DNA from: Bacilli bacterium
GTDB lineage: Bacteria; Bacillota_I; Bacilli_A; RF39; UBA660
DNA length: 36,056 nt
Reading direction: 5' to 3'
Assembly: GCA_900758895.1 (NCBI GenBank)
Contig: CAAETG010000017.1
Location: 1 to 36,056 of the forward strand
The position numbers were made by a program, and so were the translations under genes. Below the pieces are notes generated by a model that saw only the letters and a program-made list of their open reading frames with translations, ran no database searches and was not told where the DNA came from. This document shows, one piece after another, positions 5,535 through 33,327 of this stretch; position 1 is the first letter of the stretch; each line of letters opens with the position of its first letter.

Positions 5535-8162
5535 ATGGAGAAAAAATATGTTTACCTTTTTTCAGAAGGTAATAAAGACATGAAAGAATTGTTAGGTGGT
5601 AAAGGTGCTAATCTAGCAGAAATGACTGGCTTGGGGCTTCCTGTTCCGAGAGGTTTTACAGTCACAACTGAAGCTTGTAATAAGTATTATGAAGATAAGG
5701 AAGTGATTGATGAAGCGGTTAAAAAGGAAATTTATGCGAAATTAGAAGAGTTAGAGCATATTACAGGGAAAACACTAGGAGATAAGGAAAATCCACTTTT
5801 AGTTAGTGTAAGAAGTGGGGCTCGTGCTAGTATGCCTGGTATGATGGATACGGTTCTTAATTTAGGTATGAATGATGAGGTAGCAGAGGGGTTTACTCTA
5901 GTTACTAATAATAAACGATTTGTATATGATTCTTATCGTCGTTTTATCCAAATGTTTGCAGATGTTGTAAAAGGATATCCGAAATCTAGTTTTGAGAGAA
6001 GATTAGATGAAATAAAGGAAGAAAAAGGTGCAAAGTTTGATACGGATTTAACAGCAGATGATATGGTAGAAGTAACGAATGAATTTAAGAAGATTTATAA
6101 GGAAATTGCCGGAGAAGATTTTCCACAAGATCCTAAAGTTCAATTAATTGAGGCAGTTACCGCTGTATTTAGAAGCTGGAATAATGAGCGAGCTATATAT
6201 TATAGAAGAATGAATGATATTCCATCTAGTTGGGGAACAGCAGTAAATGTTCAAGAAATGGTTTATGGTAATCGTGGTGAAGATAGTGGTACAGGGGTAG
6301 CATTCACAAGAAATCCTGCAACTGGAGAAAATAAACTTTATGGTGAATATTTAATAAACGCACAAGGAGAGGATGTTGTTGCTGGTATCCGTACTCCAGA
6401 GCCTATTAGTAAACTTGAGGATACAATGCCTGAGGTATATAAACAATTTGCAAGTATCGCTAAAACGCTTGAAAATCATTATAAAGATATGCAAGATATG
6501 GAATTTACGATTGAAAATGGCAAACTTTTCATGCTTCAAACAAGAAATGGTAAGAGAACGGCTACGGCAGCTTTAAAAGTTGCAGTTGATATGGTTCAAG
6601 AAGGTTTAATTACCAAAGACGAAGCACTCTTAAAAGTGGAACCAAAACAACTTGATAGTTTACTGCATCCTATGTTCAATGCGGAAGCTTTAAAAAATGG
6701 AGAAGTGATTGCTACGGGTCTTGCTGCATCACCTGGTGCTGGAGCTGGTAAAATTTATTTTACGGCAGAATCTGTTACAGAGCATGCTAAAGCGGGTGAA
6801 AAAACAATTTTGGTTCGACTTGAAACATCACCTGAAGATATTGAAGGAATGAATCATGCGGAAGGAATTTTAACCATTCGTGGTGGAATGACAAGCCATG
6901 CGGCAGTTGTTGCTCGTGGTATGGGACGCTGTTGCGTTTCTGGTTGTGGTGAACTTTCTATTGATGAAGAAGCAAAAATATTAACGACTAAAAGTGGTAA
7001 AGTTTATCATGAAGGAGACGAAATTAGCTTAGATGGTTCTACTGGTCGTGTTTATGATGGTTTAATCAAGACAGAAGAACCAAGTATTAGTGGTGATTTT
7101 GAAACATTTATGACTTGGGCAGATGAGGCTAGAAGAATGCGAGTTCGTACGAATGCAGATACCCCAAGAGATGCCATCCAAGCTCGTAAATTTGGTGCCG
7201 AAGGTATTGGTTTATGTCGTACGGAGCATATGTTCTTTGAAGAAGATCGAATTTTCAATTTTAGAAAGATGATTACTGCTGAAACAGTAGAACAAAGAGA
7301 AGCAGCACTAGAAGATATTCTTCCATATCAAAGAGGAGATTTTGAAGAATTATTTAAAGCAATGGCTCCATATAGCGTTACAATACGCTACTTAGATCCT
7401 CCTTTACATGAATTTTTACCTCATACAGATGAAGAGATTAAACCTTTAGCAGAAGCTTTAGGAATGAGTTTTGAGGCTTTAAAGAAACGGGTAGAATCTT
7501 TAAAGGAATTTAATCCAATGATGGGACATAGAGGCTGTAGACTAGCTGTTACTTATCCGGAAATTGCAAGAATGCAAACGAGAGCAGTTATTGAAGCAGC
7601 AATTAATGTAGGAAAAGAAGGCATTAAAGTAACTCCTGAGATTATGATTCCGTTAGTAGGAGATGCGAAAGAACTTAAATTTGTTCGGGATATCGTTGTA
7701 GAAGAAGCAGATAAGTTAATTAAAGATGCAGGTAGTGATTTAACTTATCAAGTTGGAACGATGATTGAAATTCCTAGGGCAGCCTTAACTGCTGATAAAA
7801 TAGCTGAATATGCTGAATTCTTCTCATTTGGAACAAATGATTTAACCCAAATGACTTATGGATTTTCTAGAGATGATGCTGGCAAGTTCTTAAATGATTA
7901 TTATCAAAAGCAAATTTTTGAATCTGATCCATTTGCTAAGTTAGATACAGAAGGCGTTGGGGAACTTGTTAAAATAGCTGCAGAAAAAGGAAGAAGGACA
8001 AGACCAAATATTCACTTAGGAATTTGTGGTGAACACGGAGGAGATCCAGCTAGTATTGAATTCTGTGAAAGTGTAGGTCTTGATTATGTGTCTTGTAGTC
8101 CATATCGTGTTCCTATTGCAAGACTTGCAGCAGCTCAAGCAGCGATCAAGTCTGGTAAATAA
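5535..8162 (+). CDS. ppdK: Pyruvate, phosphate dikinase
   Basis: 875 aa; GGKGANLAEM N-terminus; phospho-His loop GGMTSHAAVVARG; C-terminal PEP-utilising domain with CGEHGGDP. Confidence 0.95.
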   Translation: MEKKYVYLFSEGNKDMKELLGGKGANLAEMTGLGLPVPRGFTVTTEACNKYYEDKEVIDEAVKKEIYAKLEELEHITGKTLGDKENPLLVSVRSGARASMPGMMDTVLNLGMNDEVAEGFTLVTNNKRFVYDSYRRFIQMFADVVKGYPKSSFERRLDEIKEEKGAKFDTDLTADDMVEVTNEFKKIYKEIAGEDFPQDPKVQLIEAVTAVFRSWNNERAIYYRRMNDIPSSWGTAVNVQEMVYGNRGEDSGTGVAFTRNPATGENKLYGEYLINAQGEDVVAGIRTPEPISKLEDTMPEVYKQFASIAKTLENHYKDMQDMEFTIENGKLFMLQTRNGKRTATAALKVAVDMVQEGLITKDEALLKVEPKQLDSLLHPMFNAEALKNGEVIATGLAASPGAGAGKIYFTAESVTEHAKAGEKTILVRLETSPEDIEGMNHAEGILTIRGGMTSHAAVVARGMGRCCVSGCGELSIDEEAKILTTKSGKVYHEGDEISLDGSTGRVYDGLIKTEEPSISGDFETFMTWADEARRMRVRTNADTPRDAIQARKFGAEGIGLCRTEHMFFEEDRIFNFRKMITAETVEQREAALEDILPYQRGDFEELFKAMAPYSVTIRYLDPPLHEFLPHTDEEIKPLAEALGMSFEALKKRVESLKEFNPMMGHRGCRLAVTYPEIARMQTRAVIEAAINVGKEGIKVTPEIMIPLVGDAKELKFVRDIVVEEADKLIKDAGSDLTYQVGTMIEIPRAALTADKIAEYAEFFSFGTNDLTQMTYGFSRDDAGKFLNDYYQKQIFESDPFAKLDTEGVGELVKIAAEKGRRTRPNIHLGICGEHGGDPASIEFCESVGLDYVSCSPYRVPIARLAAAQAAIKSGK

Positions 8163-8220
8163 AAAAACAAAAGTGTATCAATTTTAGTGTAATTGCGTAT
8201 ATTAAAGATAGATATACTAA

Positions 8221-8249
8221 TTGACATTTTCATAAAAATATAGTATATT
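8221..8249 (+). promoter_or_regulatory. Candidate sigma-A promoter driving the TwoAYGGAY RNA
   Basis: TTGACA (8221-8226), 17-nt spacer, TATATT (8244-8249). Confidence 0.55.
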
Positions 8250-8276
8250 TATATTGCATTCAAAGAAATGTAGTAC

Positions 8277-8367
8277 ATGTTAACCGCTTATGGATGGTGC
8301 GGGTTATAAATGATTCCAATCGCGAAATGTTAGTCGCTTACGGATGGTGCGAGTTATAAATGATTCC
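8277..8367 (+). ncRNA. TwoAYGGAY-motif small RNA (two tandem hairpins with AYGGAY loops)
   Basis: Two 41-nt units lie 50 nt apart. Hairpin 1 (8281-8306) has loop UUAUGGAUGGU and hairpin 2 (8331-8356) has loop UUACGGAUGGU. Both stems are 7 bp with a bulged G. The four differences between units are a compensatory C-G to U-A pair, an A-U to G.U change and a Y change inside AYGGAY. The RNA is bracketed by its own promoter and terminator. Confidence 0.8.
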
Positions 8368-8386
8368 GAAGGAAAATGTTTGAAAA

Positions 8387-8416
8387 CTTTATTCTAAAAA
8401 AGAATAGAGTTTTTTG
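8387..8416 (+). terminator. Rho-independent terminator of the TwoAYGGAY transcript
   Basis: Stem CTTTATTCT (8387-8395) / AGAATAGAG (8401-8409), 5-nt loop, then T6. Confidence 0.7.
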
Positions 8417-8457
8417 CTTTTATATAGAATAATTTGTGTTAAGGTATATTTCTTAAA

Positions 8458-8487
8458 TTGACACTTCAACTTTAGATATGTTATTAT
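8458..8487 (+). promoter_or_regulatory. Candidate sigma-A promoter for the small-ORF cluster
   Basis: TTGACA (8458-8463), 18-nt spacer, TATTAT (8482-8487). Confidence 0.45.
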
Positions 8488-8520
8488 GGAACTCCCACCC
8501 TTGAAAGGAGATCCAATTTC

Positions 8521-8808
8521 GTGTTAGTTTATTTTTACTTAATTACTGTTGTTTTTAGCGTTTTTGTTGTCTATATTATAAGTATTAGTTTCATCAAAAG
8601 ATTTCAACAAGACCGAATTGAAGTGGTGGCTAAGCTATCTGGATTTGATGAGTGTAAGCATCTTTTTTCTTTATTTATTAAGATTTGTTTTCCTTTTGTT
8701 AATATGATTTATGATATTTATTTATTGGGATTTCATAATCAAATTTATCAAAAGATGATTACACAACTATTTTTGGAAGGAAGAGCAATTTTTAAGAAAA
8801 ATTTGTAA
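8521..8808 (+). CDS. Hypothetical small membrane protein
   Basis: GTG start 10 nt after AAAGGAG; hydrophobic N-terminus; no recognisable family. Confidence 0.35.
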   Translation: MLVYFYLITVVFSVFVVYIISISFIKRFQQDRIEVVAKLSGFDECKHLFSLFIKICFPFVNMIYDIYLLGFHNQIYQKMITQLFLEGRAIFKKNL

Positions 8809-15694: not shown

Positions 15695-16729
15695 TTGAGC
15701 AATAAAAGTTTACAAGTAACAAATCACGATTTTTTAATCTATAGAGATGAAAATCATGATGTTAAAGTTAGTGTCATGTTAATTAATAATGATATATGGC
15801 TTACTCAAGATTTGATTGCAGAATTGTTTGGAGTTGGAAGAAGTACAATTACTGAACATATTAATAATATATTAAATAGCGGTGAATTAAGCGAAGAAAC
15901 TTCCGTCGGAATTTCCGACATAAGTTCTGGCGGTAGAAAGCCCAAAATATACAATCTTGATATGATTATTGCTGTTGGATATAGAGTGAATTCAAAAAAA
16001 GCGACCAATTTTAGAATTTGGGCGACTAAAATATTAAGAGAATTTATGATTAAGGGTGTAGTTATGGATGATGAAAGATTAAAAAATCCTAATTATATAT
16101 TTGGCGAAGATTATTTTGAAGAAACTCTTGAAAGAATTAGAAATATTCGTTCAAGTGAGAGAAGATTTTATCAAAAAATTACAGATATATATTCAACTTG
16201 TAGTGTTGATTATGATAAAGATTCAGAGATAACAAAAGAATTTTTTAAAACGGTTCAAAATAAATTGCATTATGCAATAACTGGAAATACTGCAGCAGAA
16301 ATCATATATAATCGAGTAGATTCGGAAAAGGAGAACATGGGATTAACAAATTGGAAAAATTCTCCAAATGGGCCTATTTATAAATACGATGTAGATATTG
16401 CTAAAAATTATTTAAGTGAAAAAGAATTAAAAGATTTAAATAGAATTGTAACTATGTATTTGGATTATGCCGAATTACAAGCTGAAAATCATAATGCAAT
16501 GACCATGAAAGATTGGGTAGAAAAGTTAAATGCCTTTTTGCAATTCAATGGTAAAGAAATACTTTATAATGCAGGGAAAGTATCTGCTAGTGTTGCTAAA
16601 GAATTGGCTTATCAAGAATATGATAAATTTAGAATAAAGCAGGATAAATTATATCAATCGGATTTTGATCATTTTTTAAAAGAAATAAATATGATAGAGA
16701 ATGGAAGTGAAAATAATGGCAAATATTAA
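15695..16729 (+). CDS. RhuM-family virulence-associated protein
   Basis: Characteristic IWLTQ..IAELFGV.RSTITEHI.NI...GEL and YNLDMIIAVGYRVNSKKATNFRIWATKILREF strings. TTG start after AAAGGAG. Confidence 0.85.
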   Translation: MSNKSLQVTNHDFLIYRDENHDVKVSVMLINNDIWLTQDLIAELFGVGRSTITEHINNILNSGELSEETSVGISDISSGGRKPKIYNLDMIIAVGYRVNSKKATNFRIWATKILREFMIKGVVMDDERLKNPNYIFGEDYFEETLERIRNIRSSERRFYQKITDIYSTCSVDYDKDSEITKEFFKTVQNKLHYAITGNTAAEIIYNRVDSEKENMGLTNWKNSPNGPIYKYDVDIAKNYLSEKELKDLNRIVTMYLDYAELQAENHNAMTMKDWVEKLNAFLQFNGKEILYNAGKVSASVAKELAYQEYDKFRIKQDKLYQSDFDHFLKEINMIENGSENNGKY

Positions 16730-16768
16730 TTGGTTGATTACGATTTATTGCAACCCCTAGCAAAAACC
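16728..16768 (+). repeat. Imperfect direct repeat copy 1 (AATTGGTTGATTACGATTTATTGCAACCCCTAGCAAAAACC)
   Basis: About 85% identical by eye to 16887-16927. Begins at the RhuM stop codon. Confidence 0.6.
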
Positions 16769-16886
16769 TTATAAATAAAGGCTTTTCTTGATTTTTGATC
16801 TTGCACATTTTTGATGAAAAAAGCCTAAAATCATTCAAAATAGATAAAAATATAGCAAATTTAATGATATTTATGATGGGAATTAG

Positions 16887-16927
16887 AATGGTGATTACGT
16901 CATTGCAACCCCCTAAAAAAAAATCGC
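16887..16927 (+). repeat. Imperfect direct repeat copy 2 (AATGGTGATTACGTCATTGCAACCCCCTAAAAAAAAATCGCC)
   Basis: Partner of 16728-16768. Similarity extends a few nt leftward into a degenerate copy of the last RhuM codons. Confidence 0.6.
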
Positions 16928-17014
16928 CCTTGAAACAAGAAAATAGTTGTTACACATTTTCATTTGCTAAAAAAATATAGTATCATATTTATATGAAATG
17001 AGAGTGTGATAAAA

Positions 17015-17161
17015 ATGAAAAAAATAAAATTAAAAGTTGATAATATAGAATATGGAATGCTTGTGAATGGATTAGTTGAATTAAGAAATAAATTATTAAG
17101 AGAAAAAGAAGATACATCTCCTGTTGATGAATTATTATTAAGGTTAGTAGATAAGAAATAA
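17015..17161 (+). CDS. Hypothetical 48-aa protein (not in the ORF track)
   Basis: ATG with a weak GAGAGTG RBS. Encodes MKKIKLKVDNIEYGMLVNGLVELRNKLLREKEDTSPVDELLLRLVDKK. A clean terminator follows. Confidence 0.3.
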   Translation: MKKIKLKVDNIEYGMLVNGLVELRNKLLREKEDTSPVDELLLRLVDKK

Positions 17162-17180
17162 ATAACATATAACATATTTT

Positions 17181-17211
17181 GAACTGGTAGTAAAATATCA
17201 GTTCTTTTTTT
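17181..17211 (+). terminator. Rho-independent terminator
   Basis: Stem GAACTG (17181-17186) / CAGTTC (17199-17204) followed by T7. Confidence 0.55.
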
Positions 17212-17282
17212 GTGCCTTGAAAGGCAGTACATAGCCATTTTATTTAAGATGGCTAAATATAAAAAGAAAGGAGGAGATGAAA

Positions 17283-27000: not shown

Positions 27001-30000
27001 TGTGGTACGGGTAATTTTATAGGAATGTTGCCAGAAACTCTTAATGAATGTAAATTATACGGAGTAGAGCTTGATAAAATATCTGGTAAAATAGCCCAAC
27101 AATTATATCAAAAGAGTTCTATTGCAGTACAAGGATTTGAAAATACTGCACTTCCAGACTCTTTTTTTGATGGTTGTATTGGAAATGTCCCATTTGGAGA
27201 TTTTAAATTACTAGATAAAAAGTATGATAAACACAATTTTTTGATTCACGATTATTTCTTTGCGAAAGCCATAGATAAAGTAAGACCGGGAGGAGTTATT
27301 GCTTTTATCACGAGTAAAGGTACACTTGATAAGGAAAGTCCTACTGTACGAAAATATATTGCTCAAAGAGCAGACCTTTTAGGTGCTATTCGTTTGCCGG
27401 ATAATACTTTCAAAGCAAACGCAGGAACAAAAGTAACTTCAGATATTATATTCCTACAAAAAAGAGATTCTATCACAGATTTAGAGCCAGAGTGGGTGCA
27501 TTTAGATACAAATGAAGATGGTATCAAAATGAATAAATATTTCATAGATCATCCAGAGATGATTTGTGGAAATATGGTAATGGAATCTACACAATTTGGT
27601 ATGGACTCTGCTTGTAAAGCAAATGAAGATACTACACTTGAAGAACAATTAAATAAAGCAATTCAAAATATACACGCTGAAATAAAAGAATATGAATTTG
27701 ATGACATAGAAGAAAATGAGGAAGATTTATCAATTCCTGCTGATGTAAGTGTTAGAAACTTCTCATACACATTAGTAGATAATAAAATATATTATCGTGA
27801 AAACAGTAGAATGTATCCACAAGAATTACCACTTACTACTCAAAATAGAATAAAAGGCTTAATTGAAATTAGAGATTGTGTTAGAACTTTAATTGAACTA
27901 CAAACAGAAGATTATCCAGACGAAGATATAAAGCAAGAACAAAGAAAGTTAAATGTTTTATATGATAATTTTACAAAAAAATATGGTCTTATCAATAGCA
28001 GAGCAAATACCTCTGCTTTTTCTAACGATAATAGTTTTTATTTATTATGTTCGTTAGAAATATTAGATGAAAATAAAGAATTAAAATGCAAGGCTGATAT
28101 GTTCACAAAAAGAACTATTAAGCCAAATATTGAAATAACAAAAGTTGATACTGCCCAAGAAGCATTAGTTGTATCTATATCTGAAAAGGCAAGAGTTGAC
28201 CTTGATTATATGCAAAAATTAACTGGTATGGATATGGATAAAATGATAAAAGATTTAGAGGGACAGATATTCAATGTTCCAACTTACGGTGATCCAAATA
28301 TATGGGTAACTGCTGATGAATATTTGAGTGGTAATGTTAGAGAAAAATTAAAAATAGCCGAAGAATTTTCTAAAACAGATTCAAGGTTTGAAACAAATGT
28401 AAAACATTTAAAAGAAGTACAACCCAAAGATTTAGAAGCAAGTGAAATTGCCGTAAGATTAGGTGCAACGTGGTTGCCACCAGAAGATATAGAAGAATTT
28501 ATGTGGTATTTACTAACTCCATCTTGGTATGTAAAAGATAGTGTGAAAGTTCATTATATGGAAAGTACAGCCCAATGGAGTATTGAAAATAAAAACTATG
28601 ATAGAGGAAATGTAAAAGCCAATTCTACTTTTGGTACTCATAGAGTAAATGCTTATAAAATTATAGAAGAAACACTTAATTTAAAAGATGTAAGAGTTTA
28701 TGATTATACAATAGATGATGAGGGTAGGCGAGTACCAGAATTAAATAAAAAAGAAACGGCTATTGCACAAGCAAAGCAAGAACAAATAAAGAGTGCTTTT
28801 GAAGAATGGATATGGACTGATCCAGAACGTAGACAAAGACTATGTAAAATATATAATGAAAAATTTAATTCAATTCGACCAAGAGAATTTGATGGCTCAC
28901 ATATTAGATTTAATGGAATGAATCCAGAAATAAAACTACGAAAACATCAAATAAATGGAGTAGCAAGAATACTTTATGGAGGTAATACCTTATTAGCACA
29001 CGAAGTTGGAGCAGGGAAAACGTTTACAATGGTTGCTGCAGCTATGGAAGCAAAAAGATTAGGACTATGTAATAAAAGTATGTTTGTAGTACCTAATCAT
29101 ATTGTGGAACAGTTTAGTTCAGAATTTCTGCAATTATATCCATCTGCGAACATTCTCGTAACGACAAAGAAAGACTTTGAAACTGGTAATAGAAAGAAGT
29201 TTTGTTCACGAATCGCAACAGGAGATTATGACGCAGTTATTATCTCACACAGTCAATTTGAAAAAATACCAATGTCTGTTGAAAGACAAACACAAATACT
29301 ACAAAAGCAAATAGATGACATTATGCGAAGCATAGCAGATTTAAAAGAAAATCACGGAGAAAGATTTACTATCAAACAGTTAATGAAAACACAAAAGACT
29401 TTGGAAACAAAATTAAAGAAATTAAATGACACATCAAGAAAAGATGATGTTGTCACATTCGAGGAGTTAGGTGTCGATAGAATATTTGTTGATGAAGCAC
29501 ATTATTATAAAAATCTCTTTCTTTATACAAAGATGAGAAATGTGGGTGGTATTGCCCAAACAGAAGCACAAAAATCTAGTGATTTATATATGAAATGTCG
29601 CTATCTTGATGAATTAACTGATGGAAAAGGTGTTACGTTTGCCACAGGAACACCAGTAAGTAATAGTATGGTAGAATTATATACAATGCAAAGATATTTG
29701 CAGTATGCAGAACTTGAAAAAAGAAATCTCCAAAACTTTGACGCTTGGGCTTCGACCTTTGGAGAAACAGTAACTGCCATAGAACTTGCACCAGAGGGTA
29801 CAGGTTATCGTGCTAAAACAAGATTTGCAAAATTCTATAATCTACCAGAATTACTTGCAATGTTTAAAGAAGTTGCTGATATTCAAACATCAGATATGCT
29901 TAATCTACCAGTACCAAAAGCAAACTATGAAAATGTTGTGGTAAAGCCTACTGAATTACAAAAAGAAATGGTTGCAGAACTTGCAGAGCGTGCTGAAAGA

Positions 30001-31404
30001 GTAAGGAATAAAATGGTGGACTCATCTATTGATAATATGCTTAAAATTACGAATGATGGTAGAAAATTAGCACTAGACCAAAGACTTATGAATGAAATAT
30101 TACCAGATGATCCAAACAGTAAAGTGGCTACCTGTGCTAAAAATATTTATCGTATATGGGAAGAAAATAAAGACCAAAAACTTACTCAACTTGTATTCTG
30201 TGACTTGTCCACTCCACACAATGACGGTAAGTTTAATGTATATGATGACTTAAAGAAAAAACTAGAAGAAATGGGTGTACCAGAAGATGAAGTACAATTT
30301 ATTCATTATGCAAATACTGATATTAGAAAGAAAGAATTATTTGCAAAAGTTAGGAAAGGAATTACCAGAGTTTTAATGGGCAGTACCCAGAAGATGGGTG
30401 CTGGAACTAACTGCCAAGATAAACTTATAGCATTACACGATCTTGACTGTCCGTGGCGACCTAGCGATTTAATACAACGCTCTGGAAGAATTGTCAGACA
30501 AGGAAATAATAATCCAGAGGTGTTTATCTATCGCTATGTAACTGAGGGAACATTTGACGCATATCTTTATCAGTTGGTAGAAAATAAACAAAGATTTATT
30601 TCACAAATAATGACATCTAAAACCCCAGTAAGAAGTGCAGAAGATATTGATGAAACAGCTTTATCTTATGCTGAAATTAAATCTCTTGCTTCTGGTAATC
30701 CTCTAATAATTGAAAAGACAGAACTTGATACAGAGGTTGCTAAATTAAAATTATTAAAGCAAAGTCATTTAAGTCAGATATATGCAATAGAAGATAAAAT
30801 AATTAAATATTATCCTAATGAAATTAAAAGATTAGAAACAAAAATATTAGATTTAAAAGAAGATATAGGACTATTAAATAGTCATTTGCAGACTGAAGAA
30901 ATCAAGTTTGATAGTATGGTTATTAAAGATAAAACCTATACAGATAGAATGGAAGCAGGAAATAAAATATTAGAAATTTGTAAAGGTATGACTAATCCAG
31001 AGCCAATAGAATTGGGAGAATATAAAGGATTTAAAACAAGTATTGAGTTCGATAAAATAGGAAGAACTTTTAACTTGATTTTAAAAAATAAATTGTCTTA
31101 TGAAGTTAGTTTAGGAACTGATCCTAGTGGAAATATTACACGTATTGATAATAAATTAAAAGATATAAACGAAATATTAAAAGATACTATAACATCACTA
31201 GAAGATACCAAATTACAATTTGAAAATGCAAAAGAAGAAGCAAAAAGACCTTTCAAACAAGAGCAAGAATTAAAAGAAAAATCTAAAAGATTAGATGAAT
31301 TAAATATAAAATTAAATATGAATGATAAGGAAAAAGAAGTAATAGATTTCTCTGATAATGAAGAAGTAGAGTGTCAAACCTACGAAAAGGCTTATGCAAG
31401 ATAA
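24031..31404 (+). CDS. Polyvalent conjugative-element protein: ArdC-N-like domain, disordered linker, YodL-like region, N6-adenine DNA methyltransferase, SNF2/DEAD-like helicase, coiled-coil tail
   Basis: Uninterrupted 2457-codon ORF. N-terminus NYKYSFSDQALIYAQ...WNRSFKRWVNKGATGIALL. MTase motif I LEPACGTGNF (~26986-27024) and motif IV GNVPFG (27181-27198). Helicase Walker A HEVGAGKT (~28996-29026), DEAH (VDEAHYYKN, ~29488-29512) and motif VI QRSGRIVRQGN (~30474-30510). The true start may be the TTG at 24046, 6 nt after GGAGGTG (MARRIRDITELYG). Confidence 0.9.
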   Translation: MEVTILARRIRDITELYGETLKEISKSPDEWLSFMECAAMNYKYSFSDQALIYAQKPETVACAEIETWNRSFKRWVNKGATGIALLTEKNGYPFLRYVFDVSDTNSRLGKNFLLWTVTKAYEENVIEALENRYGELENKTSLATAIISSAYNMVEDNLPDYLEDLKQFSDNSMLGSQDDNHIKATYQTLLSNSVAFMMMKRCGIDPTEYFKADDFKDIQEFNTYDTITRLGIATSDISEMGLREIYATIKNVRKNEIDKIRTFDKEKQIDYDISENRNIESERSEEYAKSNLHNAGRLQNTRPNVATEREERSQWEIRIDEAKLPKRTQESIIHNTPNERPVDGTSIRDTGTIRNESGTISITDDDKREYQRGIETTRPDEVGRLNEQLEDDSRGDNNERTNLQLGVFDKDSHHCPYVVIDAKVNQILSSANLKVTNEEIRNYFETEKDKTKRAEYLKNAFDNVYVGIYVGTELYGYKAFDNGLLIWKGNFLSRDTESFISWEDLTEHYNSMILLKQLYDRKQKLPTEKEQLSLLDLTEEQERPELEFSQEFIDTFFQEQNSERKYYIYRQLQSSLSTSDNITFLKNLYGISGSSHTVKGSGVGFNSNGKGITLYRGYEADEIEVLLKWNTIEKRLKELISLDRYLNPKEKEYYPTWLEKYENSQREEYKDENVLEQEEQNDIEIVEQQEDFIEEYEYHLGDKVYIGAEEYEILSFDENTVRLYDYQYPLFNKEMTREEFDRKVQENPANDHLKVKKSKTVEEITPKEETKEEIQEQTPQVDDLVGEHLTIDNREFIVDTIHNDRVSLRDVTFQGATGFPIFREENIDYVKELLTEKEKTEFVPAFEKKKKSKVTTFDLHPEIKNEDRHNFHITDDMLGIGTDREKFNRNVEAIKVLKLCEKENRFATPEEQKVLSQYVGWGGLPQAFDEKNSSWASEYLELKNLLDEDEYKSAMESTLTAFYTPPVVIRTMYKALEQMGMKTANILEPACGTGNFIGMLPETLNECKLYGVELDKISGKIAQQLYQKSSIAVQGFENTALPDSFFDGCIGNVPFGDFKLLDKKYDKHNFLIHDYFFAKAIDKVRPGGVIAFITSKGTLDKESPTVRKYIAQRADLLGAIRLPDNTFKANAGTKVTSDIIFLQKRDSITDLEPEWVHLDTNEDGIKMNKYFIDHPEMICGNMVMESTQFGMDSACKANEDTTLEEQLNKAIQNIHAEIKEYEFDDIEENEEDLSIPADVSVRNFSYTLVDNKIYYRENSRMYPQELPLTTQNRIKGLIEIRDCVRTLIELQTEDYPDEDIKQEQRKLNVLYDNFTKKYGLINSRANTSAFSNDNSFYLLCSLEILDENKELKCKADMFTKRTIKPNIEITKVDTAQEALVVSISEKARVDLDYMQKLTGMDMDKMIKDLEGQIFNVPTYGDPNIWVTADEYLSGNVREKLKIAEEFSKTDSRFETNVKHLKEVQPKDLEASEIAVRLGATWLPPEDIEEFMWYLLTPSWYVKDSVKVHYMESTAQWSIENKNYDRGNVKANSTFGTHRVNAYKIIEETLNLKDVRVYDYTIDDEGRRVPELNKKETAIAQAKQEQIKSAFEEWIWTDPERRQRLCKIYNEKFNSIRPREFDGSHIRFNGMNPEIKLRKHQINGVARILYGGNTLLAHEVGAGKTFTMVAAAMEAKRLGLCNKSMFVVPNHIVEQFSSEFLQLYPSANILVTTKKDFETGNRKKFCSRIATGDYDAVIISHSQFEKIPMSVERQTQILQKQIDDIMRSIADLKENHGERFTIKQLMKTQKTLETKLKKLNDTSRKDDVVTFEELGVDRIFVDEAHYYKNLFLYTKMRNVGGIAQTEAQKSSDLYMKCRYLDELTDGKGVTFATGTPVSNSMVELYTMQRYLQYAELEKRNLQNFDAWASTFGETVTAIELAPEGTGYRAKTRFAKFYNLPELLAMFKEVADIQTSDMLNLPVPKANYENVVVKPTELQKEMVAELAERAERVRNKMVDSSIDNMLKITNDGRKLALDQRLMNEILPDDPNSKVATCAKNIYRIWEENKDQKLTQLVFCDLSTPHNDGKFNVYDDLKKKLEEMGVPEDEVQFIHYANTDIRKKELFAKVRKGITRVLMGSTQKMGAGTNCQDKLIALHDLDCPWRPSDLIQRSGRIVRQGNNNPEVFIYRYVTEGTFDAYLYQLVENKQRFISQIMTSKTPVRSAEDIDETALSYAEIKSLASGNPLIIEKTELDTEVAKLKLLKQSHLSQIYAIEDKIIKYYPNEIKRLETKILDLKEDIGLLNSHLQTEEIKFDSMVIKDKTYTDRMEAGNKILEICKGMTNPEPIELGEYKGFKTSIEFDKIGRTFNLILKNKLSYEVSLGTDPSGNITRIDNKLKDINEILKDTITSLEDTKLQFENAKEEAKRPFKQEQELKEKSKRLDELNIKLNMNDKEKEVIDFSDNEEVECQTYEKAYAR
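24890..25246 (+). CDS. TnpV-family protein, nested in the +1 frame inside the polyvalent gene
   Basis: ATG at 24890 lies 8 nt after AAAGGAG (24875-24881). The 118-aa product MQKVTYTMQGDYKIPDLMLPP...YLKEHKKALYTTLL....L.EHLSEIQEQ...DQMKWVGLMNNLKMIAEEITMKELIYN matches my recollection of the TnpV family (Tn4451-type) along its whole length. Confidence 0.6.
   Translation: MQKVTYTMQGDYKIPDLMLPPKERKEVNGKYALMRLNYLKEHKKALYTTLLMKDQLMEHLSEIQEQSEMRVEQLVSQMMIKENINEELKQQDQMKWVGLMNNLKMIAEEITMKELIYN
26342..26378 (+). repeat. 37-nt exact repeat, copy B
   Basis: Identical to 19533-19569. The preceding ACTCCAAAAGAAGAAAC (from 26323) also resembles 19421-19437. Confidence 0.9.
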
Positions 31405-31465
31405 TTTGCACATTTGTTTATCTTCTTTTGATTATTTATAATGGTTGCAGGAAAGGAAGAATTAT

Positions 31466-31726
31466 ATGTCAAGTGAAGATTTTGAATTGATGAATAAATT
31501 GTCTATAAACATTATGATTTATAGAATAAAAGCCAACTTGAGTCAAGAAGAATTATCAATAATTATAGGCAAACCCAAAGATTATATTGAAAGATTAGAA
31601 AGCCTTAAATTGAAAAAGATTCCTCCTGTGGCTGTTGTAATAGATATATGTAAAACATTAAATACCAGTTTGGAATCTTTAATAGGAGAAAATTATTTTC
31701 AAAAAATTGTTATGGAGGGAATTTAA
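31466..31726 (+). CDS. XRE-family helix-turn-helix protein
   Basis: ATG at 31466 after GAAAGGAAG. The ...ANLSQEELSIIIGKPKDYIERLE... segment is a Cro/C1-type HTH. Confidence 0.75.
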   Translation: MSSEDFELMNKLSINIMIYRIKANLSQEELSIIIGKPKDYIERLESLKLKKIPPVAVVIDICKTLNTSLESLIGENYFQKIVMEGI

Positions 31727-31727
31727 A

Positions 31728-31967
31728 ATGAGTGATAATAATTGTAGGTTGAAAACAATAGTTACAAACAATATTAAATATTATCGAGAGCAAAATAATT
31801 TAAGTCGAGAGGAATTATCAGTAAGACTTGGTAAGACAAAAAAGTTTATAGAAAATTTGGAACAAGAAAAATATAAGAAAGAGCCAACACTTGTTTTAGT
31901 AGAGAATATATCAATTATTCTAAATGTTCCAATAGTAAAATTCTTTACTGAAAGGGAAAGCGATTAG
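31728..31967 (+). CDS. XRE-family helix-turn-helix protein (tandem paralogue)
   Basis: ATG at 31728, 8 nt after GGAGGG. QNNLSREELSVRLGKTKKFIENLE is collinear with the preceding gene. Confidence 0.75.
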   Translation: MSDNNCRLKTIVTNNIKYYREQNNLSREELSVRLGKTKKFIENLEQEKYKKEPTLVLVENISIILNVPIVKFFTERESD

Positions 31968-31988
31968 AGAAATCTAGTTGCTTTTTTT
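31959..31988 (+). terminator. Rho-independent terminator
   Basis: Stem AGCGATTAG / CTAGTTGCT (with G.U pairs) overlapping the stop codon, then T6-7. Confidence 0.5.
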
Positions 31989-32023
31989 ATTGCAATTAAA
32001 AACAAAGAAAGGTGGAAAATATT

Positions 32024-32359
32024 ATGAATATTAGAGAAGAATTATATAGTAAAATGGAAAAAGAGTATGATCTTTTTATTGAGAATTTAAAACAATTATC
32101 TCCGGAAAAAATTATAGATAGTGCCTATGAAAAAGTTATGAAAGAGGAACTTGTTTCAATGTTTTATCCAGAATATGAGAAGTATGATATTAGTGATATT
32201 AAAGCATTAAATAAATGTGAAAAGCCACTTGAAGAACTTTATCAAGGATGGATGGATTTTGATGGAGGAATACACGAGTCATTAGAATATAGTATAGATG
32301 ATACAATAGAAACTTTAAAAAGAGAACAAAAAGAAAAGAATAAATCTATGGAAAGGTAG
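32024..32359 (+). CDS. Conjugative-element protein (DUF3848-like)
   Basis: ATG at 32024 after AAGGTGG. The L.QLSPEKIIDSAYEKVMKEELV pattern recalls the DUF3848 family, which is common next to Toprim/primase-like genes in Firmicutes ICEs. Confidence 0.5.
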   Translation: MNIREELYSKMEKEYDLFIENLKQLSPEKIIDSAYEKVMKEELVSMFYPEYEKYDISDIKALNKCEKPLEELYQGWMDFDGGIHESLEYSIDDTIETLKREQKEKNKSMER

Positions 32360-32367
32360 TGATATAT

Positions 32368-33327
32368 ATGGCTTACTACCCACCAGAGATTATTCAAAAA
32401 GTAAAACAAATGGACTTACTAACTTATTTAAAAAACTATGAGCCAGAAGAATTAGTACAGTTCAATAGAAATACTTTTATGACCAAAACTCACGATAGTT
32501 TAAAAATAAGTAATGGTATGTGGTATTGGTTTTCAAGAGGAATTGGTGGCAAAAGTGCATTAGAATATTTAATACAAGTAAAAGAATATTCTTTTTTAGA
32601 AGCAGTAGAAACTATTGTTGGTAAAGTAGCAGTTGTACCACCAAGACCTTATAAAAGTTACTCTACAAAAAAGGAAAATAGATTATATTTACCAAAGAAA
32701 GCACCAAATAATGATAAGGCAAAAGCATATCTAGTTAGTAGAGGAATTGATGAAAATATCATACAAGAATGTATAGATAATGATTTGATTTATCAAGATT
32801 ATCCTAACAATAATGTTGTGTTTGTTGGATATGATAACAATAAAAACGCAAGGTATGCAATGTGTAGAGGAACAAATGAAAGTAGATATATGAAAGAAGC
32901 AACAGGAAGCCATAAGGCTTTTTCTTTTAGATTAGAGGCACTAGAAAAAACAGATAAAATACACCTATTTGAAAGTGCTATTGATTTACTTTCTTATGCT
33001 ACTTTGATGAAAATATATAACCTTGAATGGTATAATGAAACACTTATATCATTAGGAGGAGTTTATCAACCTGCCAAAGAAATAAAGGATAGTTCATTAC
33101 CAATTTCTTTAAAATATTATCTTAATGAACATCCAGAAATTAAAAAGATTATTCTCCATTTAGATAATGACAATGCAGGTAGAAACTCATCATTAGCAAT
33201 TCAAACATTGCTAAAAGATAAGTATGAAATCATTGATGATCCACCAAAAGTTGGAAAGGACGTCAATGATTTTTTGTGTAAAAAATTAGGAATAAATCCA
33301 AAGAAAAACAGAGAAAGGGAAAGGTAA
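32368..33327 (+). CDS. DUF3991/Toprim domain protein (primase-like)
   Basis: ATG at 32368. Toprim Glu (LFESAIDLLSYA) and DxD (LHLDNDNAGR) motifs. The N-terminal region is typical of DUF3991 proteins. Confidence 0.8.
   Translation: MAYYPPEIIQKVKQMDLLTYLKNYEPEELVQFNRNTFMTKTHDSLKISNGMWYWFSRGIGGKSALEYLIQVKEYSFLEAVETIVGKVAVVPPRPYKSYSTKKENRLYLPKKAPNNDKAKAYLVSRGIDENIIQECIDNDLIYQDYPNNNVVFVGYDNNKNARYAMCRGTNESRYMKEATGSHKAFSFRLEALEKTDKIHLFESAIDLLSYATLMKIYNLEWYNETLISLGGVYQPAKEIKDSSLPISLKYYLNEHPEIKKIILHLDNDNAGRNSSLAIQTLLKDKYEIIDDPPKVGKDVNDFLCKKLGINPKKNRERER

Follow-up and report, generated by a model that had tools for sequence, protein, structure and literature searches.

The window analysed here, a 36,056-nt stretch covering positions 1 to 36,056 of contig CAAETG010000017.1 from the Bacilli bacterium assembly GCA_900758895.1, carries a short array of direct repeats between ppdK and a 95-aa hydrophobic open reading frame (8521-8808). 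The array and its borders comprise the following features, in which S1 and S2 denote the two helices of each repeat and L100 is a homologous locus used for comparison.

8221..8249, + strand: sigma-70-type promoter of the cptI array, with TTGACA at 8221-8226 (-35) and TATATT at 8244-8249 (-10)
8256..8271, + strand: short 5' leader hairpin, GCAUU-CAAAGA-AAUGU, placed by folding at the predicted transcript start
8275..8324, + strand: CptI repeat unit 1, predicted H-type pseudoknot (row 1 of alignment A1)
8281-8287 with 8299-8306, + strand: S1 of unit 1, with bulged G8303
8291-8294 (UGGA) with 8315-8318 (UCCA), + strand: S2 of unit 1
8307-8314, + strand: A-rich loop of unit 1, UAUAAAUGAU
8325..8374, + strand: CptI repeat unit 2, predicted H-type pseudoknot (row 2 of alignment A1)
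8331-8337 with 8349-8356, + strand: S1 of unit 2
8341-8344 (CGGA) with 8365-8368 (UCCG), + strand: S2 of unit 2, with a compensatory change from U-A to C-G relative to unit 1
8357-8364, + strand: A-rich loop of unit 2
8375..8387, + strand: partial third repeat (AAAUGUUUGAAAAC), overlapping the 5' arm of the terminator
8382..8415, + strand: intrinsic terminator, an AT-rich 14-bp hairpin plus U-run, from folding and an alignment of 33 homologues
8403..8435, + strand: putative deletion junction, which aligns to L100 DNA both after cptI and after cptN

The overall architecture described in an earlier note on this DNA, in which a promoter and a terminator bracket two 41-nt units placed 50 nt apart, was borne out. 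The promoter (TTGACA-17-TATATT) matches 11 of 12 consensus positions in a promoter scan, and a TTGAC(A/T)...TATAGTATATT layout recurs upstream of most homologous arrays. The hairpin at 8382-8415 folds and is conserved in 33 homologues, with eight conserved pairs, four of which show changes on both sides; a simple terminator scan requiring at least three G-C pairs found nothing at the array because the stem is AT-rich. The two 41-nt direct repeats (8277-8317 and 8327-8367; offset 50 nt, identity 90%) are present, and the repeat period was corrected to 50 nt, with units at 8275-8324 and 8325-8374 and, behind them, an incomplete third copy (AAAUGUUUG...) that enters the terminator. In nearly all arrays, AAAAUGUU(U/A)G stands directly after the last unit. 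The fold also contains the hairpin proposed for each unit, with its bulged G and 11-nt loop, and at the sequence level both hairpins are followed by an identical tail, GTTATAAATGATTCC (also given as GUUAUAAAUGAUUCC); further copies of loop or tail are absent from the rest of the 36-kb window. The array thus stands as a real structured noncoding RNA that is separately promoted and terminated.

The short leader hairpin is kept in homologues with other sequences (GCACUU..AAGUGU and GUACUU..AGUAC, the covariation being judged by eye rather than by a formal count) and may have a role in 5'-end stability. The folding energy of the whole transcript is no better than that of shuffled sequence (z = -0.98), and the structural evidence is therefore comparative, not thermodynamic. 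In addition, a 15-nt inverted repeat (87% complementary) flanks the promoter at window positions 8205-8219 and 8241-8255, and GTATACT...AGTATAT surrounds the promoter in many homologous arrays, though not in every one, across genomic settings that are unrelated. This inverted repeat might act as an operator or mark the left boundary of the mobile cassette.

Homologous arrays were collected by scanning species-representative genomes with the pattern GGAATCATTTN{7,13}CCATCCRTAA. The scan returned 90 stretches, approximately 75 of which have the 10-nt gap of the window and come from metagenome-assembled genomes (MAGs) of uncultured gut Bacilli or 'Tenericutes', with hosts including Clostridium sp. 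CAG:302, CAG:451 and CAG:914 and Mycoplasma sp. CAG:472. Where the gap had another length, the matches fell in unrelated phyla and seem to be due to chance. A profile search of the scanned loci identified 168 unit copies (95 distinct sequences) in 96 arrays, most of which hold two units (74) or one (20), with single examples of three and four; among annotated phage and plasmid records, blastn with the element found no counterpart. Nine metagenome contigs encode an identical PpdK and carry the identical element wherever their DNA reaches beyond ppdK, save one (L004, from MAG GCA_964317575.1). On this contig, the sequence departs from that of the window exactly 2 nt 5' of the cptI -35 (L004 5683-6238, corresponding to window 8218/8219). 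The DNA past this point is unrelated and contains a TTGACA of its own as well as an ORF of at least 131 aa that has no Pfam match, before the contig ends; the likely cause is insertion of a mobile element, or else a repeat at which the assembly broke.

Alignment A1 comprises 89 distinct 50-nt units without gaps, with S1 formed by columns 7-13 and 25-32 (one bulge) and S2 by columns 16-20 and 41-45. Over the 89 units, 88.7% of the cells are paired; shuffling lowers this to 79.2 +/- 0.6%, and sliding the partner strand to 34-45%. In 134 cells both sides have changed, compared with 53 +/- 6 after shuffling, the observed count being reached by none of 500 shuffles. Double changes occur in all five S2 pairs, for example 17:44 (CG 48, UA 36), 20:41 (AU 66, GC 22) and 19:42 (GC 78, AU 9). 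The loops read AUGGAU, ACGGAU, ACGGGU, CCGAGU, CCAGGU, CUGGGU or ACAGAU, each with a matching tail; in second units, CCGAGU (25 arrays) and ACGGGU (12 arrays) occur together with CCAGGU, CCGGGU and others. Nearly invariant positions comprise the loop-closing UGGUGCG, the A-rich UAUAAAUGAU, and AAAUGUU at the starts of the repeats. Because the collecting pattern required GGAUGG and AAAUGAUUCC in one or more units of every locus, the sample is biased to close relatives; such fixing can only lower the apparent covariation. Judged from sequence comparison, an S1 hairpin and an S2 helix joining loop to tail are shown by this covariation, and the H-type pseudoknot between UCC and GGA, which the earlier note had offered as speculation, gains support from every one of the S2 pairs.

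A further proposal, that all differences between the two units of the window are neutral, stands only in part. Compensatory changes are indeed present, but a fifth difference, A8318 versus G8368, had been overlooked. It lies just outside the 41-nt repeat and pairs with loop U8291/C8341, so that the supposedly neutral Y change is one half of a compensatory pair, the loop-tail helix reading UGGA/UCCA in unit 1 and CGGA/UCCG in unit 2. Differences of this kind are widespread, as the S2 helices differ between units in 65 of 73 two-unit arrays. Typically, unit 1 has UGGA/UCCA and unit 2 has CCGAG/CUCGG, CGGG/CCCG or CGGA/UCCG, and these unit-1 and unit-2 types are conserved across species (arrays in L010-L103). 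The consistent difference could be a designed feature that prevents mis-pairing between neighbouring repeats or builds a 2:2 complex with two different RNAs.

The same alignment bears on the identity proposed in the earlier note, namely TwoAYGGAY (RF01731). The two window loops do read AUGGAU and ACGGAU, and the source is gut-associated and Bacillota-like, in line with the gut metagenome source of that family. However, 'AYGGAY' is, on the aligned sequences, simply one strand of the S2 helix as it happens to read in the window's genome, since the motif varies among homologues and covaries with the 3' tail. Canonical TwoAYGGAY consists of two hairpins sharing a basal stem (bioRxiv 10.64898/2026.09.22.753630), whereas an enclosing stem is absent both from the single-sequence fold of the element and from the 33-homologue consensus, and the units are independent 50-nt repeats of which arrays hold one to four. 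The suggested covariance-model search (Rfam 15) gave no RF01731 match in the whole window at the gathering threshold, and RF01731 is absent from the five chance-level matches obtained at E<=10 in 421 nt (8100-8520), which are only LhrC, snR36 and others, all far below threshold. Ten homologous loci likewise lack RF01731 and have no noncoding RNA match other than tRNAs. Unlike TwoAYGGAY, the loops are engaged in pseudoknots and the genetic partner is a toxin gene. Membership in the TwoAYGGAY family is hence extremely improbable.

Hairpin loops containing A(N)GGA are the sites recognised in CsrA targets. The earlier note had drawn a parallel with such sites, and a sponge for a CsrA/RsmE-type protein might accordingly be envisaged, given that the loops UUACGGAUGGU and UUAUGGAUGGU resemble A(N)GGA-in-loop sites and that the 50-nt spacing of the two sites would allow a dimer to be bridged. 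Against this reading, many units have GAG, GGG, AGG or AGA in place of GGA, always with a compensating tail; selection therefore acts on pairing and not on GGA as a sequence, which is itself paired in S2. The consistent genetic partner is moreover CptN, not csrA, and a sponge function has scarcely any probability. A coding role is more doubtful still. Both units contain a 10-codon ATG...TAA frame (MLTAYGWCGL and MLVAYGWCEL), yet a Shine-Dalgarno sequence is absent, the start context is variable (some units begin ACAUG, CAAUG or AAAUA), and codon 6 changes in concert with positions beyond the stop codon (pairs 18:43, 19:42 and 20:41), which coding cannot explain. That each unit encodes a 10-aa peptide is thus vanishingly unlikely.

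The gene that accompanies the arrays provides the functional assignment. In most loci, an ORF of 155 aa lies 60-135 nt past the terminator, and its product, with the N-terminus MKVxTGY(I/L)YHIKDEFFD, matches along its full length the 'CptN Toxin' of Eubacterium rectale (PDB 4RMO, chain A; residues 5-150, E=1.9e-17), together with a sub-threshold Pfam match to ToxN and a weak PADLOC match to AbiQ. Full-length cptN accompanies 48 of the 96 arrays, 19 have a partial gene, 24 (including the window) have none, and five are not judgeable. Type III toxin-antitoxin (TA) loci are defined by a promoter, tandem repeats, a terminator and a toxin, and cptIN loci by repeats of 40-48 nt in 1.9-3.4 copies and toxins averaging 149 aa, with chromosomal location and several truncated toxins, according to Blower et al. 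2012, who defined the family (PMC3401426). The window has approximately 2.2 copies of a 50-nt repeat, with a promoter before and a terminator after them. An adjacent CptN homologue is present in orthologous loci (full-length in 48 of 96) and absent here, as tblastn with CptN found no CptN-like sequence across the 36-kb window. A TA function is therefore not claimable for the window copy, and the window holds a cptIN remnant, not a complete locus. The view that the family has no assigned function gives way to its placement as the antitoxin of a characterised TA class.

Several loci depart from the simple order of array and toxin. In three that were binned as Muribaculaceae (Bacteroidota; L013, L015 and L068), the cassette recurs with its low GC content and almost unchanged units, accompanied in two of the three by a CptN that shares 88-90% identity with those of Bacilli; mis-binning seems likelier than inter-phylum transfer. 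In six others (L020, L025, L036, L047, L067 and L069), a second array with CUCUUGGA-type loops lies approximately 500 nt 5' of the intact locus and precedes a divergent cptN fragment (63-68% identity, residues ~70-155 only) directly upstream of the intact cptIN. These are tandem cptIN loci, one of which is decaying.

The partner gene also bears on a regulatory interpretation. A promoter followed by two small H-type pseudoknots with A-rich loops, a terminator and a gene looks like a tandem riboswitch or leader controlling the downstream gene by termination, and the A-minor twist of CptI also occurs in SAM-II (PMC4627078). In relatives, however, the gene that would be regulated is always a CptN toxin homologue, no Rfam riboswitch family was matched, and the next gene of the window has its own promoter and lies, in L100, past cptN and a second terminator. 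A riboswitch is for these reasons very unlikely.

Crystallised CptI is a 45-nt H-type pseudoknot with an L1 of 1 nt and a very A-rich L2 of 9 nt packed along S1; its single-stranded ends are held in the active sites of CptN, the RNA is cut after A45, and the complex is a 2:2 ring (PMC4627078). The dimeric protein partner suggested in the earlier note would fit this CptN-CptI arrangement, by analogy with the E. rectale complex. The E. rectale CptI 45-mer, taken from the primer table of PMC4627078 (AAGUUUACCACUGACCGAUAUGUGGUAUAUAAAUGGUCGGGUUGA), has the same order of elements as the window-family units in a MAFFT alignment, with UAUAAAUG common to the A-rich loops, 19 invariant columns including AUAAAUG, and GGUUGA at the 3' end common to E. 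rectale CptI and some units. Nhmmer with the family profile found no match to E. rectale cptI. Type III antitoxins diverge fast (PMC4627078). The similarity at the level of the RNA profile is too weak, and CptI membership is therefore based on toxin and architecture, not on RNA sequence: the link consists of toxin homology in orthologous loci, a common layout and one common 8-mer.

That layout includes, as in E. rectale CptIN, a promoter, approximately two tandem repeats, a terminator and, in orthologous loci, a toxin of about 155 aa, and, as in E. rectale CptI, an H-type pseudoknot with an 8-9-nt A-rich loop and single-stranded A-rich 5' and 3' tails. Chromosomal loci and frequent truncation of the toxin are shared as well, and the A-rich junctions of the window family (..GA AAAUGUU..) resemble the A45^A1 site. 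Unlike known CptIN loci, the window copy has no toxin gene, the repeats measure 50 nt, 2 nt beyond the range of 40-48 nt reported in 2012, the S2 helices within an array are mostly unequal, a 5' leader hairpin is conserved, and the hosts are uncultured gut Bacilli rather than Lachnospiraceae. L1 has 3 nt instead of 1 nt and a 4-nt UGGU is inserted between S2 and S1, so that three-dimensional details may differ from those of E. rectale CptI. More distantly, ToxIN of Pectobacterium atrosepticum and Bacillus thuringiensis and AbiQ/antiQ belong to the same class, with pseudoknot antitoxin units, and share with CptIN the principle of a repeat RNA processed by the endoribonuclease toxin that it inhibits. 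Their toxins, however, form another family, their repeats measure 34-36 nt and reach 5.5 copies, their complex is a triangular 3:3 assembly, and there is no significant sequence match.

How the toxin gene came to be missing from the window can be read from L100, which is 91.6% identical across ppdK and the array and has the order ppdK-cptI-cptN(155 aa)-94aa-38aa-77aa-ruvX. The gene order of the window is that of L100 minus cptN only. The two high-scoring segment pairs (HSPs) with L100 overlap at window 8403-8435, which matches both L100 2324-2356 and 2869-2901, and approximately 545 bp including cptN are missing from the window relative to L100. The switch between the two alignments falls inside GAGTTTT, and the window terminator is a hybrid, with a 5' arm from the cptI terminator and a 3' arm and tail identical to the terminator that follows cptN in L100. 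We infer that the event was a deletion in the window rather than an insertion in L100. At the same site, L066, L034 and L016 have both cptI and cptN and lack the 95-aa ORF, and in L054 and L027 cptI joins the 38-aa and 77-aa genes directly.

The 95-aa hydrophobic ORF was considered as a replacement toxin and rejected, as its homologue in L100-L103 lies past an intact cptN and a second terminator. It has its own promoter (8458-8487) and no Pfam match, and only two related clusters exist among 5.8 billion proteins; one relative, of 109 aa (L104 1365-1694), occurs in another context, after STAS-domain and sigma-factor genes. It is an ordinary neighbour gene.

The array of the window is orthologous to arrays that precede cptN, and cptN itself is absent from the window. 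With high probability, a CptIN-family type III TA locus has here lost its toxin gene, the element being the antitoxin half (cptI) that was left. In intact loci, a single promoter would drive a 5' hairpin, two 50-nt pseudoknot repeats, a partial third repeat and a leaky terminator, and read-through of this terminator would allow expression of the CptN endoribonuclease. Within each pseudoknot, the A-rich loop UAUAAAUGAU would lie along S1. By analogy with the E. rectale complex, CptN would cut the precursor at the A-rich inter-repeat junctions (...GA^A(A)AUGUU...) and leave a 2',3'-cyclic phosphate, the cleavage position being placed by reference to A45^A1 of E. rectale CptI, and the partial third repeat would supply the A-rich junction that serves as the 3' processing site of unit 2. 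The released pseudoknots would then hold CptN inactive in a ring of two proteins and two RNAs; both the processing site and this 2:2 mode of inhibition are carried over from the E. rectale structure. In the window, the ~545 bp containing cptN would have been lost when the terminators of cptI and cptN, whose 3' halves are similar, recombined there, leaving the promoter and both pseudoknots intact and a hybrid terminator just upstream of the 95-aa gene. Because promoter and terminator are intact, transcription is still likely, and the RNA is probably made as an unprocessed species of approximately 160 nt without a cognate partner at the locus, its expression being predicted from these signals.

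Such an orphan array might instead have been kept as an antidote acting in trans against a related CptN, whether that toxin comes from another site in the genome, from a conjugative element or from a phage. Retention is common, as 24 of 96 arrays are toxin-less, most of them with intact promoters and pseudoknots, and three lineages (the window, L054 and L027) have an array without cptN at the ppdK-ruvX site. On five contigs (L010, L074, L085, L089 and L092), an orphan array lies beside an intact cptIN. A precedent exists in the pseudo-ToxI repeats of phage PhiTE, which are reported to neutralise ToxN (PMC3475682). These repeats resemble the window element in being an antitoxin-type array without an adjacent toxin gene, and differ in being phage-borne and serving escape from the ToxIN of the host, whereas the window array is chromosomal and occupies the site of a deleted toxin.

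Mobile DNA is a possible source of such a toxin, and the window itself includes, at 15695-33327, a series of genes of the kind found on integrative conjugative or mobile elements:

15695-16729: RhuM
17935-19002: ParB_N protein
20087-22600: SpaA-domain surface protein
24031-31404: SNF2-helicase/Eco57I-like methylase giant, 2457 aa
32359-33327: DUF3991-Toprim

A scan of IMG/VR found one contig with a complete cptIN (UViG_3300011008_002676, L106 4583-5239), comprising two units, a terminator and a 159-aa CptN. The contig is filed as viral, and its cptIN neighbours, a SpaA-like surface protein and a large multi-pass membrane protein, look like those of a conjugative element; cptIN of the window subfamily may thus travel on mobile DNA, a pointer to mobility and not to the status of the orphan copy. 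Both this conjugative-element-like contig and the ICE-like region of the window speak for an antidote in trans. On the other side, CptI rescues only its cognate CptN in kill/rescue assays (PMC4627078), and cptN was not found within the 36-kb window. Furthermore, the S1 core and S2 are intact in 100% of the units beside a full cptN (n=92), compared with 94% (S1 core) and 89% (S2) of orphan units, both window units being among those intact. This lower integrity suggests some relaxed constraint, and broken pairs at 89-94% intactness are what relaxed constraint predicts. Selection of the window array as a trans antidote is, on balance, unlikely, while retaining an appreciable chance.

Reading the element as an orphan cptI array replaces the annotation as an orphan 'TwoAYGGAY' small RNA, tempting but wrong, with a concrete one, and illustrates how one strand of a pseudoknot helix can, when only one genome is viewed, pass for a conserved loop motif. 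The collected arrays document a large CptIN subfamily of uncultured gut Bacilli that had gone unannotated, none of it represented in Rfam, and covariation supports for this subfamily a pseudoknot laid out like that of crystallised CptI. Roughly one array in four has lost its toxin while retaining the RNA gene, which provides a natural data set on the decay of type III TA loci, and orphan arrays of this kind are useful for the annotation of TA and defence loci in metagenome-derived genomes. If the trans-acting role were true, toxin-less CptI arrays would be maintained RNA antidotes in small-genome gut Bacilli, not just debris, and would protect against CptN carried by incoming conjugative elements, phages or paralogous loci.
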